From assembly GCA_963664225.1 (NCBI GenBank), contig OY760937.1, positions 5,664,001 to 5,728,000 of the forward strand: 64,000 nt of DNA. Direction: 5' to 3'. The position numbers are program-made. Of this stretch, positions 12,001 through 21,000 are shown in pieces. This stretch comes from Verrucomicrobiia bacterium. GTDB lineage: Bacteria > Verrucomicrobiota > Verrucomicrobiia > Limisphaerales > UBA1319. Every line of letters begins with the position of its first letter. Within the stretch, counting starts at the first letter, position 1.

Positions 12001-15000
12001 TCTGGGGTGATTTCAAAGCCTCTGAAATGCAGGCAAAAATCGAAGGAACACTAGGAGCGTGGAAAAAAGGAGGGAATCCAAAGCCTGCAATTCCAGCCGT
12101 GGACACCGCCGTGGAACGGTCCGGGACTTATTACATCGGCAAAGAGGACATCAATCAGACCTGGATAGTGGTGGGGCATTTGGGCGGCCAAAGGAACGAC
12201 CCCGATTATTATGCGCTAAACTTAATGAATCGCATCCTGGGCGGCAGCATGGCCTCGCGCATGTTCAGCAACATCCGTTCGGACATGGGACTGGCCTATA
12301 ATATCCGTTCCATTTGGAACGCCGAATGGGATCATCCGGGCGAGTTTATCGCCAGCGGCAGCACAAAAGCAGGAACGACCGTCAAGATGTTGAACGCCAT
12401 GAAGCATGAGATTCAGCGATTGACTGAGGAAGAGGTGACCGATGAGGAATTGTCACGCGCCAAGGACGGTGTCCTTAAGGGATTCGCTTTTGAGTTTGAT
12501 TCCACAGGCAAGGTGGTGCAGCGAATGATGAATTACGAGTTCTACGGGTATCCACACGATTACCTTCAACGCTTCCGTGAGAATATCGAAAAAGTCAGCC
12601 GGGCCGATATTCTGAACGCGGCTAAAAAACATCTTCATCCCGATCAATCGATCCAATTGCTTTTGGGCCGGGAAAAGGATTTTGACCAGCCGCTGTCAAC
12701 TCTGGGGAAAGTCACTCCGGTGGATATCACAATTCCCGGAGCGCCAGAGGCTGATTCTACGAATAAATAGGTGGAGTTGGCATCGCGAACGGAATGCTTG
12801 ACCTCTTGAATTCAATCCTATTCCAAAGGTTTCCAATTTGACGGCGTTGGAACTCTGAGGTTTATTCGTGAATGGTCTAAATCTCAGGTATGCCGGATTG
12901 GTTGCACGGCCTGACAGTGGACTGTGCTGCCGATGAACGAAAACAAGCCGATGATATTGTTGTGCCGCTGCTCCCGCGGCGATGTCTCCCATGCGCAAGC
13001 TCAGGAACGCATGGCTCGCGCCCTTGAAGCGGCGCAACTGACTTTCCTGACTGTCGATGATTTGTGCGGACTGGCCGCACTCAAGGATCCTGTTTTGCGC
13101 GAGGTATTGGACAATCATTCCACGACCGTTCTGGCGTGCCATCCCCGCGCCGTTAATTGGTTGATTCGTTCGAGTGGTTCCCAAGCCAATCGAGCCACTC
13201 TTTTAAATTCGCGCGATGAGGCGGCCGAGCCAATTGTCGCACGCCTTCTTGAAACGGGTCTTCCTTCCGGCGATTTCACCTCAATTGTATTCAAGAAAGC
13301 CGGCGAATGGGTTCCATGGTTTCCGGTGATCGACTATGATCGCTGCAAGAATTGCAAACAATGTTTGAGCTTTTGCCTCTTCGGAGTATATGGGTTGGAT
13401 GCGGAGGGTCGTGTATCGGTGGCTAATCCCCAAGGGTGCAAGACCAATTGTCCGGCCTGCGCACGGATTTGCCCTGACGTTGCCATTATTTTTCCGAAAT
13501 ACAACCAGGCGCCAATCAACGGTGCTCCCATCGTGGACGAAAGCTCCGAGCGAGCGAAGGTCAAAGTCAATGTTCAGGAAATTCTGGGCTCTGACATTTA
13601 TGGGGCGTTATCGGAACGCAAGAAGAAAGCCCGGTCTCTGCTGGTCAAGAAATCAGCCAGTCCTGGCGGCCTTGATTTGAACGCACATCAGCCTGCATCG
13701 CCACTCAAACCCTGATATTGTCCATGATGCTCCAATTGGCCCGCCGGTTTCTTACCGAACCTGACAAACGTTTGCTTGCGAAACTGGCATGGAATTGCGG
13801 ATGGAAAGGCATGCTGGCCATCAACGCTTTCAATCGGCGTCGCAAACGGGGCGTTTATTTTCCGGCCTTTGTTTTTTTATCGGTGACCAACAAGTGCAAT
13901 CTACACTGTCAAGGTTGCTGGGTTTCAGTGAATAGTCCGCCCCGGGTGTTGGATGGTGGGACTCTTGATCGCGTGGTTACAGAATGCAAGGCGCAGGGGG
14001 CTTCGTTTTTCGGAATTCTTGGGGGTGAGCCATTACTGCACCCGGAAATCTTCGACGTGATCTCCAGACATGGAGACTGCTATTTTCAACTCTTCACCAA
14101 TGGAACTTTATTGACGGATGAGGTGGCTGCGAAATTGAGGCGGTTGGGCAATGTCACGCCTTTGATCAGTGTCGAGGGCAGCGAGCAGGTCAGCGACGAA
14201 CGACGGGGTGGCAATGAAGTCTATCGCAGGTCAATGAGCGGGATTGATGCCTGTCGGCGCAACCGGCTCTTTTTCGGCGTGGCCACGAGCGTTTGCCGGT
14301 CGAACTTTTCAGATTTGGTTTCGCGCAAATTTGTCGATGAATTGATTGCGCGTGGAGCGCATTATTTGTGGTATTACATCTACAGGCCCGTGGGGGCGGA
14401 TCCTTCCCCGGAATTGGCGCTTTCAGAAAATGAAATTGTGGAATTGCGTCAGTTCATGGTTAACATCCGGGCAGAGGCGCCCATTGTGGTGGTGGATGCC
14501 TATTGGGATCACGAAGGGCGCGCCTTGTGTCCGGCAGCCACGGGCATCAGTCATCACATCGGTCCGGGCGGGGATGTCGAGCCGTGCCCGGTGGTCCAGT
14601 TCGCGCGGGAAAATATTGGTGACGGCTCGCAAATGGTGAAACAAATCACCGAGTCCAAGTTCCTTGAGCGGTTCAGGGAATTTTCCAGCAGTGCAACGCG
14701 TGGCTGCGTTCTCATGGATCATCCAGAGGCGTTGCGGCAGTTCTTGATCGAGCAAAACGCAAAGGACACGACAGGTCGAGGTACCGGACTCAAGGAGTTG
14801 GCAGGAATGGCAACGCTACCCTGCCATCACGTTCCGGGTCGTGAAATTCCTGAAAAGCAGTGGATGTATCGGTTTGCCAAGAAACACTGGTTCTTTGGTT
14901 TCGGGGCCTATGGATGAGGCATTGAATACAGCACATGATTTCCTATAGATTTCAAAGATCGTGATGACGCCAAAAACATCTCCGCGCAAGCGTCTGGCAC

Positions 15001-18000: not shown

Positions 18001-21000
18001 GCGCCGATTCTTACGGTGTGCGCTTTATCCGGAAGGCTTGGAAAGGGTTTGGAAGCATGGAGGCTGGTTCCGCAACTTCCCTTTGAGCTGGCCATTTTCC
18101 CATATCAGCTTTTCAGATGGCTCCATCTGTCCGTGGTCAGCTATGCCATTCCGGCATTGATTGCAATTGGCCTGGTCCGTCACCATCATGGCGGTTCCGG
18201 GTTCTCACCGCGTCGGATGTTTCGGGAACGCATCAAGAACAGAACGCTTGAGATTCTGGCGTCCATGCAGCCCCAATCGGGCGGTTATCTGGAGGCCACG
18301 CCACTGACGGGCTTTGTTGCACTGGGCTTGGCCAACTCAGGCTATTCCGGGCATCGAGTCACCAAGAAATGCGTGGAATTTTTGATCGCCTCAGCAAGGG
18401 AGGACGGCAGTTGGCCCATCGATACGAACCTGGCAACATGGGTGACGACTCAAGCTGTTAATCAAATTTCTGAGAAGGAAAATCCTTTATCTCGCGCGCA
18501 ATGTGATGGATTGCGCCAATGGCTTCTTGACCAGCAATACACCGTAGAGCATCCGTTCACGCATGCTCCTCCCGGTGGCTGGGCATGGACTGATTTGTCC
18601 GGCGGAGTGCCCGACGCGGACGACACCGCAGGGGCACTTCTGGCGTTGTTCCGTCTTGGCCCGGTGGATCAGCGCACACAAAAGGCTGCCAAGGCAGGTT
18701 TGCAGTGGCTTCTCGATTTACAAAATGGCGATGGGGGCATTCCCACCTTTTGCCGTGGATGGGGGAAGCTGCCGTTTGACCGTAGTTGCCCGGATATCAC
18801 GGCGCATGCGATGCGGGCATTCTGGGATTGGCGCAATTCGGTGGACGGTCCCCTGAAGAAACGCCTGGAAACAGCATTGGAGAAGGGACTTTCCTATCTC
18901 AAGAAATCCCAAACCGCGTCTGGTTCCTGGCTGCCGTTGTGGTTTGGAAACCAGGAGTCCAAGGGACATTCCAATCCGACTTATGGCACCTCTGCTGTGG
19001 TGATGTCGTTATGCGCCGTTGCGGCAGATCACCATGAGAAAGTAATGAATGCGCTGGAAAAGGGGTGTCAATGGCTGGTCTCCGCGCAAAATGCCGACGG
19101 GGGGTGGGGTGGGGATATTGGAGTCCGCTCAACAATCGAGGAGACTGCGCTGGCGGTTAGCGCGCTGGCCGAAGCAGGCATGGATTATGAAAGGTCCTAT
19201 CTCGCAGGAATTGAATGGCTCCTCAATCGCAGCCGGGAATGCACACAATGGCACCCGGCGCCAATCGGGCTTTATTTCGCATCGCTATGGTATTCCGAGC
19301 GGTTGTATCCGCAGGTATTCACAATGGGAGCGCTGACGCGAGCGGCCAAATGGATGAGCGAGGAAACGGGTCGTCTGCAGAAGGAAAGAATTAGCGGGTT
19401 TGATGGAGTGGCGCCAGTTCCGTGCAACGAAGGGCCCGAAGGAAATTCGGGTGGAAGCGCGGACAGACAAAAAGGCTCTCACCGCCGAGCCTGAGCGTGA
19501 AGAACGACATGGCTAAGACAAATAACCTAATCTGCCTGTTAAGTTAACTATAATAACCTGTCAAACGCCTTCGACACAGTTTGAGAGCCAACGGCTATAG
19601 TCTGGCAAATATTGCAAATATTGGCAATGCGAAAACATGAATTTGTTCATTTTGATTTTTCCATCGTCACCGAGGCCCCGGTTTAGTTAGATAAAGGGGA
19701 TGTTATCAGAAAAGCCATGGCAACCCGAGGCCGTGTGGAGGATGGTGATGGCTAATTTTGCCACGCTGTTTCTGGGAATGCTGGCCGCCAGCATTCTTAC
19801 GCGCCTGCTTGGTGGCTGGAACCGGAGTGATTTGGAGATGGTCCATTTTTCTTTAGTGGCCGCAAGTTTTCAAGGGGCGACGTTTGTTTTGGCAGCATTG
19901 TTGTGCCGTTCGCAGAAGGTGACATGGAATGAAGCTTTTGGAATTTCAAACCGGCCACTGCGCGCGCTGAGCATTGCCAGTGTTGTGGCGGTTGGCACTT
20001 TGATTGGGGCGATGATTTTAGGCGCCGTCGCCTCGGCGGTCATGCTGCAACTGGGGATGAAACCAGAAGCCCAACAAGCTGTGCAGATGTTGCAGTCGAC
20101 GGAATCGATCTGGCGGCGGGCATTTTATGGCCTGGTGGCCATTCTGATCGCGCCGGCTGCGGAGGAAATTCTCTTTCGGGGTCTGGTGTATCCCTCGATC
20201 AAACAGATGGGATTCCCAAGGCTGGCGTTATGGGGCACTTCTCTGATTTTTGCGGCAACACATGTCAATGCCATGGCACTTCTTCCTCTGACATTTGTGG
20301 CGCTCATGTTTACACTGTTGTATGAAAAAACGAACAATCTGCTCGCGCCGATTCTGGCCCATTCGATGTTCAACGCGGTCAATTTTGCAATTCTGATTTT
20401 TCAGAAGGATCTTACCAGTATCTGGGATTCGCTCTATGAACGAATTTGATCTGATCAGGCTTCTGACGGCTGGCTTGCCCTCCAACGATACCACCATTTT
20501 GGGGGCTGGGGATGATTGTGCGGTTCTTGATCTGGGATTATCGGACCGCTGGCTGCTTTTTAAAACGGACGCCGTGGTTGAAGGAATTCATTATACTTCG
20601 GATGCCAAGCCGGAAGAAGTGGGCCACAAGGCATTGGCCAGGTGCCTGAGCGATGTCGCCGCCATGGCGGGCAAACCGGTGGCTGCGCTGGTTACGCTGG
20701 GCCTTCCGCAGGAGTATGATCCAAAATGGGCGCTGGCGGTTTACGCCGGCATGAGCGAATTGGCGCGACGCTATCGCGTGGCCATTGTGGGCGGCGAAAC
20801 CACAACGGTCCCTGAGCGCACATTGCTGTCTGTGGCGCTTTTGGGAACGGTGGACAAGAATAAATGCCTAAAGAGGTCGGGCGCCCTGGCGGGAGACGCC
20901 ATCTTTGTAACCGGCGAACTGGGCGGTTCCATTCAAGGAAAGCACCTTGACTTTGAGCCGCGCATGGAACAGGCACAGTGGCTGGCAACTCACTTTTCGA

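Follow-up and report, generated by a model that had tools for sequence, protein, structure and literature searches.

DUF116 (arCOG02078/COG1852) has been described as a Cys-rich family with a CxxCxxC motif and a predicted flavodoxin-like fold, for which electron transfer was proposed, and its fusion to a polyprenyl synthetase was recorded for Pirellula staleyi (Makarova et al. 2015, PMC5898192, in the sections consulted). Among class II terpene cyclases, a clade called 'SHC-like' or of 'unknown function', with a polyprenyl synthase nearby, was noted in 2020 (Santana-Molina et al. 2020, PMC7306690) and is treated also in 'The Evolutionary History and Modern Diversity of Triterpenoid Cyclases' (Mol Biol Evol 2025, PMC12414744); 'DUF116' and 'radical SAM' gave no match in the searched main and supplementary text of these two papers. 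A third system, the hopanoid (hpn) pathway with HpnH, HpnP/HpnR and a copy of IspH, shares with the locus described here the logic of a class II cyclase followed by radical SAM tailoring. However, it has squalene synthase genes where the present operon has a prenyl synthase-like gene.

The window (64,000 nucleotides of contig OY760937.1 from a Verrucomicrobiia bacterium) contains all five same-strand genes claimed by the initial annotation, as ORFs on the + strand at 12924-19494 with intergenic gaps, in gene order, of 2, 43, 5 and 5 nt. The start formerly given for the first gene, 12933, is an internal ATG of an ORF beginning at 12924. The five genes form a genuine terpenoid operon that is conserved, and its product is probably a ring-bearing lipid. 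The same operon, with as many as nine genes, occurs in Verrucomicrobiota, Planctomycetota, Acidobacteriota and others, and the five genes are the version carried by this genome. When full it encodes a cysteine desulfurase, a GcvH-like protein, a CobW-type GTPase, FdN and FdC (the two halves of the ferredoxin-type protein as separate proteins), a radical SAM enzyme, the DUF116::synthase fusion, a toroid protein and an SHC-like cyclase. Cultured Planctomycetaceae SH248 and strain ZRK34 have near-full gene orders that miss only the upstream desulfurase.

Conservation of the neighbours is of similar order to that reported before. In 80 fusion loci the partners were toroid (37), FdC (34), FdN (25), CobW (25), GcvH (18), radical SAM type A (15), CysDes (13), cyclase (12) and a B12-type radical SAM (3). 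When the fusion proteins are grouped by single linkage at 70% identity, each of the 16 clusters, which span Planctomycetota, Acidobacteriota, KSB1, Omnitrophota and Sumerlaeota, contains a locus with toroid and FdC. Seen from the cyclase side, and with the count limited to the 58 loci whose upstream sequence is 4.5 kb or longer, toroid was found in 29, the fusion in 25, FdC in 25, radical SAM type A in 18 and the B12-type in five. It is extremely improbable that the five genes are mere neighbours without a common function. No partner lies nearby in 14 of 47 full-flank fusion loci and no promoter or terminator signal delimiting the five genes was found, but the order recurs in at least six phyla, the gaps are only 2-43 nt, and toroid and fused DUF116 co-occur genome-wide. 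Among 301 genomes of the phylum, DUF116 is present in 46 and toroid in 36; 34 of the 36 toroid-positive genomes carry DUF116, against toroid in 2 of 255 DUF116-negative genomes and in none of the 10 with only a short DUF116 frame, counts that overstate the association as related genomes are not independent.

The last gene (17572-19494, +) encodes a two-domain, SHC-like class II terpene cyclase of 640 aa matching SQHop_cyclase_C (E 4e-34) and SQHop_cyclase_N (E 1.3e-13). Its DxDDTA acid is intact, as had been claimed: DADDTA at 348-353 aligns over DVDDTA of the A. acidocaldarius SHC, and VPDxDDT is invariant in 10 operon cyclases. Against the SHC equivalog of NCBIfam it scores only 94 bits (cut-off 431). 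Judged by taxa, length, motif and neighbour, it fits the SHC-like clade as characterized in the sections consulted (PMC7306690, PMC12414744), sharing with it PVC and Acidobacteriota taxa, a conserved catalytic DxDD, a polyprenyl synthase next door and a length inside the 550-700 aa range applied to that clade.

The block does lie apart from the hopanoid genes, which exist separately in this genome in canonical form, whereas the window cyclase and radical SAM enzyme fall far below the SHC and HpnH cut-offs. Three stronger SHC-family genes are at 1.59, 1.74 and 5.78 Mb, HpnH and a second IspH are side by side at 1.24 Mb, and SQS_PSY genes are at 2.07 and 3.45 Mb.

The central gene (14961-16625, +) encodes the fusion, whose length is 554 aa, or 553 aa if counted from the ATG at 14964. 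Residue numbering here begins one residue ahead of that used previously. Residues 268-492 (15762-16436) form a trans-isoprenyl diphosphate synthase-like domain (PF00348, E 2.9e-43). Fusion of DUF116 to this domain is common, as stated before: the DUF116 part matched 826 representatives (one per 50%-identity cluster) at E ≤ 1e-3. An alignment (A2) was made of 103 sequences, 86 from the best 150 matches (all 477-664 aa) and 17 others. The Asp-rich motifs are present and at least 90% conserved in A2; they lie at 317-321 (DDIED) and 450-454 (DDLED), two to three residues from the positions first given. The fold is that of canonical enzymes such as P. horikoshii GGPP synthase (1wy0) and E. coli octaprenyl diphosphate synthase (TM 0.82-0.87, normalised to target), with which both DDxxD motifs, GKRxR and KT are common. 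Unlike them, the fusion has RYG for RRG downstream of the first Asp-rich motif, has lost the GK lysine after the second in a six-residue deletion, and carries an N-terminal extension of about 235 residues with DUF116. 'Complete', as the initial annotation had it, is overstated for a synthase domain in which two canonical basic motifs are missing.

These two altered substrate-binding motifs mean that elongation is not assured. The domain may instead be non-elongating, in the manner of the all-alpha-helical prenyltransferases Ord1 and ComQ: it would take a preformed prenyl diphosphate, ionise it and transfer its chain not to IPP but to another acceptor, which the toroid protein or DUF116 might hold. 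We consider this unlikely, though of appreciable weight. In its favour are the loss of the GK lysine and the change to RYG, with Y327 at least 90% conserved among the 103 sequences, in a genome that already has two canonical polyprenyl synthases, with RRR or RRG. Ord1, a solved enzyme of this fold that prenylates indole without IPP condensation according to the portion of its description consulted, ranks near the top of the fold matches to the model (E 6.5e-11). Yet the two Asp-rich motifs are retained, as are the KT motif and the Lys and Arg of GKRxR; in sequence as in fold, GGPP and longer-chain synthases match best; and no candidate acceptor is evident. The roles given to the changed RRG and GK residues are those assigned in FPP synthase work and are assumed to hold here. 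Small residues (Ala-Ser) at -5/-4 ahead of the first Asp-rich motif suggest a product chain of C20 or longer.

The toroid protein (311 aa, 16631-17566, +) is the constant partner of the DUF116 fusion. It is a single alpha-alpha toroid matching Prenyltrans (PF00432, E 1.2e-8), as do all 27 family members, and the family has invariant sequence motifs. It resembles a prenyltransferase beta subunit or an SHC beta domain and lacks the zinc ligands and the DxDD acid. With protein prenyltransferase beta subunits (RabGGTase beta, 6o60_B/6j6x_B) it has in common the single toroid, GGF-type repeats and PF00432. However, the alignment to RabGGTase beta is very weak (E 0.13), Leu and Tyr stand in place of the Cys and His that we take to be zinc ligands there, and no counterpart of their alpha subunit is evident. 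At E ≤ 1e-3, SQHop_cyclase_C was matched by 7 of the 27 members and SQHop_cyclase_N by 4, so earlier counts of SHC within two genes of DUF116 may partly have counted toroid proteins.

The block opens with a two-domain ferredoxin-type protein (263 aa, 12924-13715, +). A ferredoxin domain of the 2x[4Fe-4S] type, with a tail, makes up its C-terminal part (Fer4_10 at residues 134-184, E 2e-6); the best solved match, 8ys5_D (2-oxoglutarate:acceptor oxidoreductase, E 2.6e-7), covers only residues 136-222. The N-terminal domain (FdN), about 125 aa long and containing Cys, had no Pfam or NCBIfam match. Of 80 related loci, 25 encode the halves as two ORFs, FdN and FdC. The radical SAM enzyme (399 aa, 13718-14917, +; PF04055, 64.6 bits, E 1.6e-17) has a CNLHCQGC cluster motif and a C-terminal part with four Cys. 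Among NCBIfam models it matches NirJ2 and AhbD best, but weakly (64 bits where the cut-off is 500), and it scores 41 bits against HpnH (cut-off 225). Of 80 fusion loci 15 contain an orthologue, as do 18 of 80 cyclase loci. Across loci three different radical SAM types adjoin the fusion; a B12-type enzyme replaces this one in some lineages, and a Tes/TrsS-like enzyme accompanies the fusion in others.

DUF116 itself occupies residues 77-219 of the fusion (15189-15617; PF01976, E 2.2e-32, 112 bits where the cut-off is 25). The previously described CxxCxxC reads C129-x2-C132-x2-C135, and seven Cys (111, 118, 129, 132, 135, 177 and 205) are invariant across A2 and also in 75 mixed fused and unfused sequences. 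The AF2 model of the fusion (pLDDT 92.7, pTM 0.91; DUF116 alone, pLDDT 92.0) confidently predicts a compact Rossmann-like domain, four-stranded parallel alpha/beta, with the invariant Cys at strand ends after strands 1, 3 and 4. Searches for a specific solved relative of this fold gave only generic Rossmann-like matches (best Z 7.2, best Foldseek E 0.058). From the Cys pattern, fold and neighbours we infer a redox or Fe-S role and likewise the metal content. The window domain and the family of Makarova et al. (PMC5898192, in the sections consulted) share a Cys-rich CxxCxxC domain and the polyprenyl synthetase fusion. In contrast, the archaeal proteins described there have two N-terminal membrane helices where the fusion is modelled with three soluble helices, and adjoin sulfite/nitrite reductase or ArsA-type ATPase genes rather than isoprenoid genes.

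Unfused DUF116 was followed in 80 loci, a sample biased by having been gathered with one peptide pattern. IspH, a CrtI-family desaturase or an aldehyde dehydrogenase adjoins in 43 of them (within 3 kb, IspH in 29 and CrtI-family in 26). In 17, fmt adjoins, mostly in the order def-fmt-DUF116-M48-rsmB, without an isoprenoid gene. One canonical SHC protein bears a DUF116 tail, and a Bipolaricaulota cluster, according to a figure legend, combines DUF116, IspH, SHC and HpnH. The synthase fusion, the 43 unfused loci and the tailed SHC support a repeated tie of DUF116 to isoprenoid genes, wider than previously shown. An isoprenoid link for the family as a whole does not hold, given the fmt loci and the different archaeal contexts in print.

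The best explanation as a whole, to which we give a little less than an even chance, is a conserved operon for a cyclic isoprenoid route with DUF116 as a metal-cluster electron relay. The synthase-like domain would make, or at least bind and ionise, a head-to-tail polyprenyl diphosphate, and the catalytically stripped toroid protein would hold the hydrophobic chain. The SHC-like cyclase would protonate and cyclise a substrate other than squalene, and the radical SAM enzyme would tailor the chain or ring product. DUF116 would bind one or two metal clusters, most likely Fe-S, and, tethered to the substrate-holding domain, would take up electrons from the ferredoxin-type protein and hand them on to the radical SAM enzyme; in other bacteria, unfused DUF116 would serve IspH likewise. 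As neither fusion partner (synthase or SHC) does redox chemistry, the relay must act in trans. In favour of this explanation are the tight packing, the recurrence of the gene set, the co-occurrence of toroid and DUF116, the seven invariant Cys and the isoprenoid-pathway neighbours of DUF116 that are Fe-S or radical enzymes. The fmt loci, the 14 full-flank fusion loci with no partner nearby, the merely generic fold matches and the presence of the cyclase in only 12 of 80 fusion loci count against it.

Alternatively, DUF116 might be a Cys/Zn module with a structural or regulatory task, such as sensing metals or redox state or serving assembly, and might control or localise its fused enzyme without contributing to catalysis. 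The fused enzymes need no electrons, the family is found in unrelated operons, seven Cys could bind zinc, and a localising role would fit the archaeal membrane helices. Even so, this is distinctly improbable: strand ends of a Rossmann-like fold are a usual cofactor site, the family most often adjoins Fe-S or flavin redox enzymes, and the DUF116 part is conserved at least as strongly as the catalytic domain. It is quite unlikely that DUF116, in place of relaying electrons, carries clusters or sulfur to mature or resupply Fe-S and radical enzymes or, more boldly, helps to insert sulfur into the isoprenoid. Such a role is suggested by the desulfurase (519 bits against the IscS model, IscS/NifS-type), GcvH-like carrier protein and CobW-type metallochaperone GTPase directly upstream in the full operon, but these three genes are absent from the window operon, the CobW-like orthologue lies 2.6 Mb away adjoining an aquaporin gene, and of the 13 fusion loci with a desulfurase, 11 have it on the opposite strand. 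We know of no thio-isoprenoid chemistry for such clusters, which counts against sulfur insertion.

Of the initial interpretation, the conserved terpenoid operon and the isoprenoid tie stand; 'first' and a family-wide link do not, and 'complete' is overstated. The functional link was not a first, as the DUF116-synthase fusion and a proposal of electron transfer were in print in 2015 (PMC5898192) and the polyprenyl synthase near SHC-like cyclases in 2020 (PMC7306690), both in the sections consulted. New here are the toroid protein as the fusion's constant partner, the synthase domain without two canonical basic motifs, the confident Rossmann-like DUF116 model without a specific solved relative, the contexts of unfused DUF116, both isoprenoid-type and fmt, and a canonical SHC with a DUF116 tail.

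Five open reading frames on the + strand occupy window 12924-19494, separated by intergenic gaps of 2, 43, 5 and 5 nt. According to Pfam and NCBIfam, they encode a ferredoxin-type protein (12924-13715, 263 aa), in which 4Fe-4S dicluster models match residues 134-190 only, a radical SAM enzyme (13718-14917, 399 aa), a DUF116::polyprenyl synthase fusion (14961-16625, 554 aa; DUF116 at residues 77-219, synthase at residues 268-492), a toroid protein (16631-17566, 311 aa), whose sole match is the prenyltransferase alpha-alpha toroid model, and a cyclase (17572-19494, 640 aa) related to squalene-hopene cyclase (SHC). 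The five-gene block reported in the initial annotation is confirmed by these reading frames, by their Pfam and NCBIfam domains and by its recurrence across phyla, and the case that the five genes share one function is strong. A promoter scan of window 12600-19800 gave one promoter-like site (4.3 expected), and a terminator scan of the same interval revealed no convincing terminator at either end of the operon.

Upstream of the operon is a pair of M16 peptidase genes and downstream are genes for a CPBP protease, thiL and tsaB. None of these was found recurring beside the fusion in other loci and they look unrelated to the operon. The CPBP/Rce1-like intramembrane protease (window 19700-20449) starts 205 nt after the cyclase gene and overlaps the start of thiL (20436-21350) by 14 nt. 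It was considered as a CaaX-type processing partner and ruled out, as a homologue lay beside the fusion in 0 of 80 other loci.

The genome, a single 5.78 Mb contig whose closest relatives among public genomes belong to Verrucomicrobiota, has one DUF116 gene. Elsewhere it carries three SHC-family genes that score better than the operon cyclase, two canonical polyprenyl synthase genes, two SQS_PSY genes and two ispH genes, one of them immediately 5' of hpnH at 1.24 Mb. Hence the operon is an addition to a normal hopanoid toolkit, not a replacement for it. At G000:C1:1241290-1244965 on this genome's contig, outside the window, the second ispH copy (a 445-aa frame) directly precedes hpnH, the same IspH-terpenoid gene pairing as at unfused DUF116 loci elsewhere. 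Two of the SHC-family matches, G000:C1:1591811-1592710 (-) and G000:C1:5779612-5780511 (+), have identical scores (377.9 bits) and 712-aa frames, and one lies only 4 kb from the contig end; the pair may stem from a large duplication in inverted orientation or from a repeat in the assembly.

Conservation around the fusion was surveyed with one genome per species (269 relatives found, 80 kept) by searching six-frame ORFs with iterated profiles; 47 of the 80 loci had at least 4 kb on both sides (full-flank). The toroid protein was found near the fusion in 37 of 80 loci (22 of the 47 full-flank loci). The two halves of the ferredoxin-type protein are separate ORFs in some relatives, the C-terminal half (FdC) occurring in 34 loci (21 full-flank) and the N-terminal domain as its own ORF (FdN) in 25 (17 full-flank). 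The window-type radical SAM enzyme was present in 15 (9 full-flank), a B12-binding radical SAM protein in three (2 full-flank) and the cyclase in 12 (8 full-flank). Beyond the five genes of the window, neighbours named from Pfam and NCBIfam were a CobW-type GTPase (25/80; 18/47), a GcvH-like protein (18/80; 13/47) and an IscS/NifS-type cysteine desulfurase (13/80; 10/47). A role for DUF116 in cluster or sulfur delivery is a live rival to electron transfer. Genes for IspH, CrtI-family proteins or aldehyde dehydrogenase were beside the fusion in 0 of 80 loci. When fusions were clustered at 70% identity, all 16 of 16 clusters contained a locus with toroid protein and FdC; these 16 include the singletons of Planctomycetota, Acidobacteriota, KSB1, Omnitrophota and Sumerlaeota.

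The 47 full-flank loci divide into 24 with a window-type context, nine with a second context and 14 with no recognisable partner. The order in the second context is fusion, a 113-aa protein, a radical SAM enzyme and an Lgt-like membrane protein, and this arrangement may represent another, lipid-type role for the fusion. The radical SAM enzyme is closest to TrsS, at 200 bits, followed by the tetraether synthase Tes at 146 bits, both under the cut-off. It carries an HMPTM zinc ribbon and the 113-aa neighbour belongs to no family; the loci (L042, L048, L053, L073, L078, L083, L085, L086 at 10916-14760, L088, L089 and L090) come from one Verrucomicrobiales clade. In the literature searched, TrsS is named solely in a row of a table that assigns it no function.

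The survey was repeated from the cyclase side, with ten operon cyclases as queries (more than 475 relatives, 80 kept; the upstream flank reached 4.5 kb or more in 58). Of these 58 loci, 29 had the toroid protein, 25 the fusion, 25 FdC, 18 the window-type radical SAM enzyme and five the B12 type. The near-full order GcvH, CobW, FdN, FdC, radical SAM, fusion, toroid, cyclase was found in Planctomycetaceae SH248, strain ZRK34 and three Acidobacteriota bins. The desulfurase gene is upstream in most of these loci and downstream of the cyclase gene in SH248. Chthoniobacter flavus Ellin428 has fusion, toroid protein and cyclase. In the genome studied here, a CobW-type orthologue (G000:C1:3079662-3080783), 52% identical to the CobW protein of full operons, adjoins an aquaporin gene 2.6 Mb from the operon, showing that the accessory module is dispersed.

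The fusion and the toroid protein are the constant pair of the operon. In 301 genomes of the phylum, each searched for both families, DUF116 was detected in 46 and the toroid family (E ≤ 1e-10) in 36. Of the toroid-positive genomes, 34 of 36 had DUF116, compared with toroid proteins in two of 255 DUF116-negative genomes, counts that overstate the association because related genomes are not independent. Where the DUF116 frame was of fused size, the toroid protein was present in 34 of 36 genomes, and a purpose-built profile found a 35th adjoining the fusion (genome G181); where only a short DUF116 frame (149-194 aa) was present, it was found in 0 of 10.

All 27 of 27 aligned toroid proteins matched Prenyltrans. 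Their invariant motif PDLLSTA..LHAL resembles, by eye and without an alignment, the stretch PDADDTAGALLAL of the window cyclase, with Leu-Ser replacing the two catalytic Asp residues. In a weak alignment (E 0.13) to RabGGTase beta, the positions aligned with zinc ligands are D246, Leu and Tyr298, of which D246 and Y298 are invariant across the 27 family members. The Asp/Cys/His zinc site of protein prenyltransferase beta subunits is not reproduced in this weak alignment. With Leu-Ser for the catalytic Asp residues and Leu and Tyr at zinc-ligand positions, the sequence of the toroid protein suggests a role in binding and not in catalysis.

The cyclase has the two-domain architecture of class II enzymes, matching both SQHop_cyclase_N and SQHop_cyclase_C. 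Its scores are far below the cut-offs of both the squalene-hopene cyclase equivalog TIGR01507 (94.1 versus 431.1 bits) and the general squalene/oxidosqualene cyclase model (122.8 versus 322.7 bits), and it is not assigned to either. The motif DADDTA aligns with DVDDTA of SHC and is invariant in the ten operon cyclases. Santana-Molina et al. 2020 (PMC7306690) define an 'SHC-like' group, report that its Planctomycetes members retain catalytic residues and that a polyprenyl synthase gene is usually near the SHC-like gene, and consider a non-squalene precursor likely. The operon cyclase agrees with the published description of this clade in taxon, length, conserved acid and synthase neighbour. A later study (Mol Biol Evol 2025, PMC12414744) calls the function of the clade undemonstrated. 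The literature texts searched contain no mention of DUF116 or radical SAM enzymes in the context of SHC-like cyclases, and literature searches found no paper under PF01976 and none that brings together terpene cyclases, radical SAM enzymes, polyprenyl compounds and the Verrucomicrobia. The system is, then, an orphan that had already been noticed; its operon-level anatomy and a set of testable roles are what is added here.

The radical SAM enzyme has its CxxxCxxC motif as CNLHCQGC and belongs to the superfamily (PF04055, 64.6 bits versus 29.5). It shows a weak likeness to NirJ/AhbD and is far under the cut-off for HpnH (TIGR03470, 41 versus 225 bits); the true HpnH of this genome is encoded at 1.244 Mb.

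The synthase domain is a clear member of PF00348 (148.4 bits, cut-off 27) and its model has the all-helical fold, with a Foldseek match to 1wy0 (E 3.7e-12, TM 0.82 normalised to the target). Both DDxxD motifs, D317-D321 and D450-D454, are at least 90% conserved in 103 sequences, as is Y327. The canonical basic motifs (RRG and GK...K.T), both kept in the genome's two canonical synthases, are absent from the fusion family. In the alignment, RYG stands in place of the RRR or RRG of those two enzymes, a six-residue deletion removes the GK lysine after the second Asp-rich motif and the second lysine is Arg. The changed positions are ones that we take, from work on FPP synthase, to bind the diphosphates of IPP and the allylic substrate. 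For that reason the synthase cannot be called complete, as the initial annotation had it: RYG replaces RRG and the GK lysine is lost. Ala-Ser is found at -5/-4 before the first Asp-rich motif, which by the chain-length rule, as we understand it, would allow a product of C20 or longer. A live rival is that the domain carries out a non-elongating prenyl transfer; among the fold matches of the fusion model is Ord1, described in the literature as an enzyme of the same fold without IPP condensation.

Membership of the fusion in PF01976 (DUF116) is equally clear (112.1 bits, cut-off 25). Seven cysteines, C111, C118, C129, C132, C135, C177 and C205, which include a CxxCxxC, are invariant in 103 fusions, and the same columns remain invariant after 46 unfused proteins are added. 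AlphaFold2 modelled the whole fusion with pLDDT 92.7 and pTM 0.91 (pLDDT 92.0 for the DUF116 domain alone) as three N-terminal helices followed by a four-stranded parallel alpha/beta domain. In the model C111 follows strand 1 and the ensuing loop contains C118, C129, C132 and C135; C177 and C205 come after strands 3 and 4, respectively. The cysteines would thus cluster on the usual cofactor side of the fold, judging from fold position, and their pattern and strand-end placement suggest that DUF116 binds an Fe-S cluster. A purely structural zinc domain is a live rival reading of these cysteines. The two N-terminal transmembrane helices of archaeal arCOG02078, a feature of that subgroup and not of the Pfam domain, are missing from the fusion, judged by residue charge and model packing: the first 100 residues are charged, and the model shows them as three soluble helices that pack against the domain.

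A PDB sequence search with the fusion matched the synthase part only. With the DUF116 model, Foldseek had no match at E ≤ 0.001 (the lowest was 0.058) and VIA-align, run on 48,161 chains, none at Z ≥ 8 (the highest was 7.2, for a designed Rossmann protein). A protein atlas search with the DUF116 part reached a best score of 0.76, under the meaningful level. The structural matches of the DUF116 model are generic and include no solved specific relative, in agreement with the 'flavodoxin-like' HHpred result of Makarova et al. 2015 (PMC5898192). That study describes DUF116, notes a polyprenyl synthetase fusion in Pirellula staleyi and proposes electron transfer.

DUF116 also occurs unfused. Genomes of the phylum encode short forms (146-185 aa) that lack membrane helices; another set, of 32 shorter homologues of the DUF116 part, was rejected as an unfused family as most look like fusion fragments from their identity (43-68%) and lengths. 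Five short forms used as queries gave 80 loci in Kiritimatiellia, Lentisphaerae, Planctomycetota, Nitrospirae, Elusimicrobia and others, a sample skewed to one subfamily because a single search pattern from a narrower alignment (A6) was used. Within 3 kb of unfused DUF116 were IspH in 29 of the 80 loci, a CrtI-family desaturase in 26 (341-458 bits, cut-off 238) and aldehyde dehydrogenase in 16, at least one of the three being present in 43. The fmt gene was within the same distance in 17 loci, most of them arranged as def-fmt-DUF116-M48 peptidase-rsmB, and 20 loci had none of these four. SHC was beside unfused DUF116 in 0 of 80. A preprint figure legend places DUF116, IspH, SHC, HpnH and polyprenyl synthase together in one Bipolaricaulota cluster.

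In Kiritimatiellia, Lentisphaerae and Verrucomicrobiota (L099-L178; for example L099:4401-9880 and L094:3447-6450), unfused DUF116 is divergent beside CrtI-family and IspH genes, often followed by aldehyde dehydrogenase and a second CrtI-family gene. The def-fmt-DUF116-M48-rsmB housekeeping order is seen in Nitrospirae, Brocadiales, Planctomycetota and Elusimicrobia (loci L166, L170, L172, L174, L177, L178 and others). At one locus (L091:1553-4003), an 816-aa fusion of pyridine nucleotide-disulphide oxidoreductase, rhodanese, TusA and DsrE-like domains is encoded 2 kb from unfused DUF116. A 790-aa protein on a 3.6 kb contig (P0190) joins a full canonical SHC (N domain 356 bits, C domain 463 bits) to a C-terminal DUF116 (residues 654-780); as a single record, it may be a gene-calling artefact. 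Among the 12 hits of a search for longer DUF116 proteins, which depends on words shared with the query, no lipoate-ligase fusion was seen; this is weak evidence against such a form. The def-fmt-rsmB and archaeal contexts make the DUF116 family a general module. The interpretation first put forward for the block is supported in part: the shared-function operon stands, the complete synthase does not, and DUF116 as a family is not specific to isoprenoids.

DUF116 is fused to two non-redox enzymes, yet its neighbours include IspH, flavoenzymes of the CrtI family and radical SAM enzymes of three kinds. The best fit to this combination would be a carrier that is tethered to the substrate-holding enzyme. 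On the account that we favour, the fusion would build or hold a head-to-tail polyprenyl chain, the toroid protein would cradle it, the radical SAM enzyme would tailor it and the SHC-like enzyme would cyclise it. DUF116 itself would act as a metal-cluster relay from the ferredoxin-type protein to the radical enzyme. We advance only tentatively, and as a joint proposal that we think rather less probable than its failure, that DUF116 is a new dedicated Fe-S electron carrier family, a flavodoxin stand-in serving isoprenoid Fe-S and radical enzymes (IspH; HpnH-, Tes- or B12-type radical SAM), and that the DUF116-anchored operon makes a new polycyclic lipid class from a head-to-tail polyprenyl chain, not squalene, in Planctomycetes, Verrucomicrobia and Acidobacteria.

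The operon joins two questions, the product formed by 'SHC-like' cyclases in PVC bacteria and Acidobacteria and the role of the widespread DUF116. It makes both testable, in that the fusion and the toroid protein form a constant pair, the radical SAM enzymes are interchangeable and the cyclase retains its acid. Cultured carriers are Chthoniobacter flavus Ellin428, Planctomycetaceae SH248 and strain ZRK34; the Schlesneria paludicola carrier is a metagenome bin bearing the name of that cultured species. If IspH or radical SAM enzymes of anaerobes are reduced by DUF116, a gap in the account of their electron supply would be closed. A new cyclic polyprenoid as the product would bear on the membrane biology of these phyla and on the reading of fossil terpanes, and such polycyclic lipids could be a source of unassigned sediment biomarkers.
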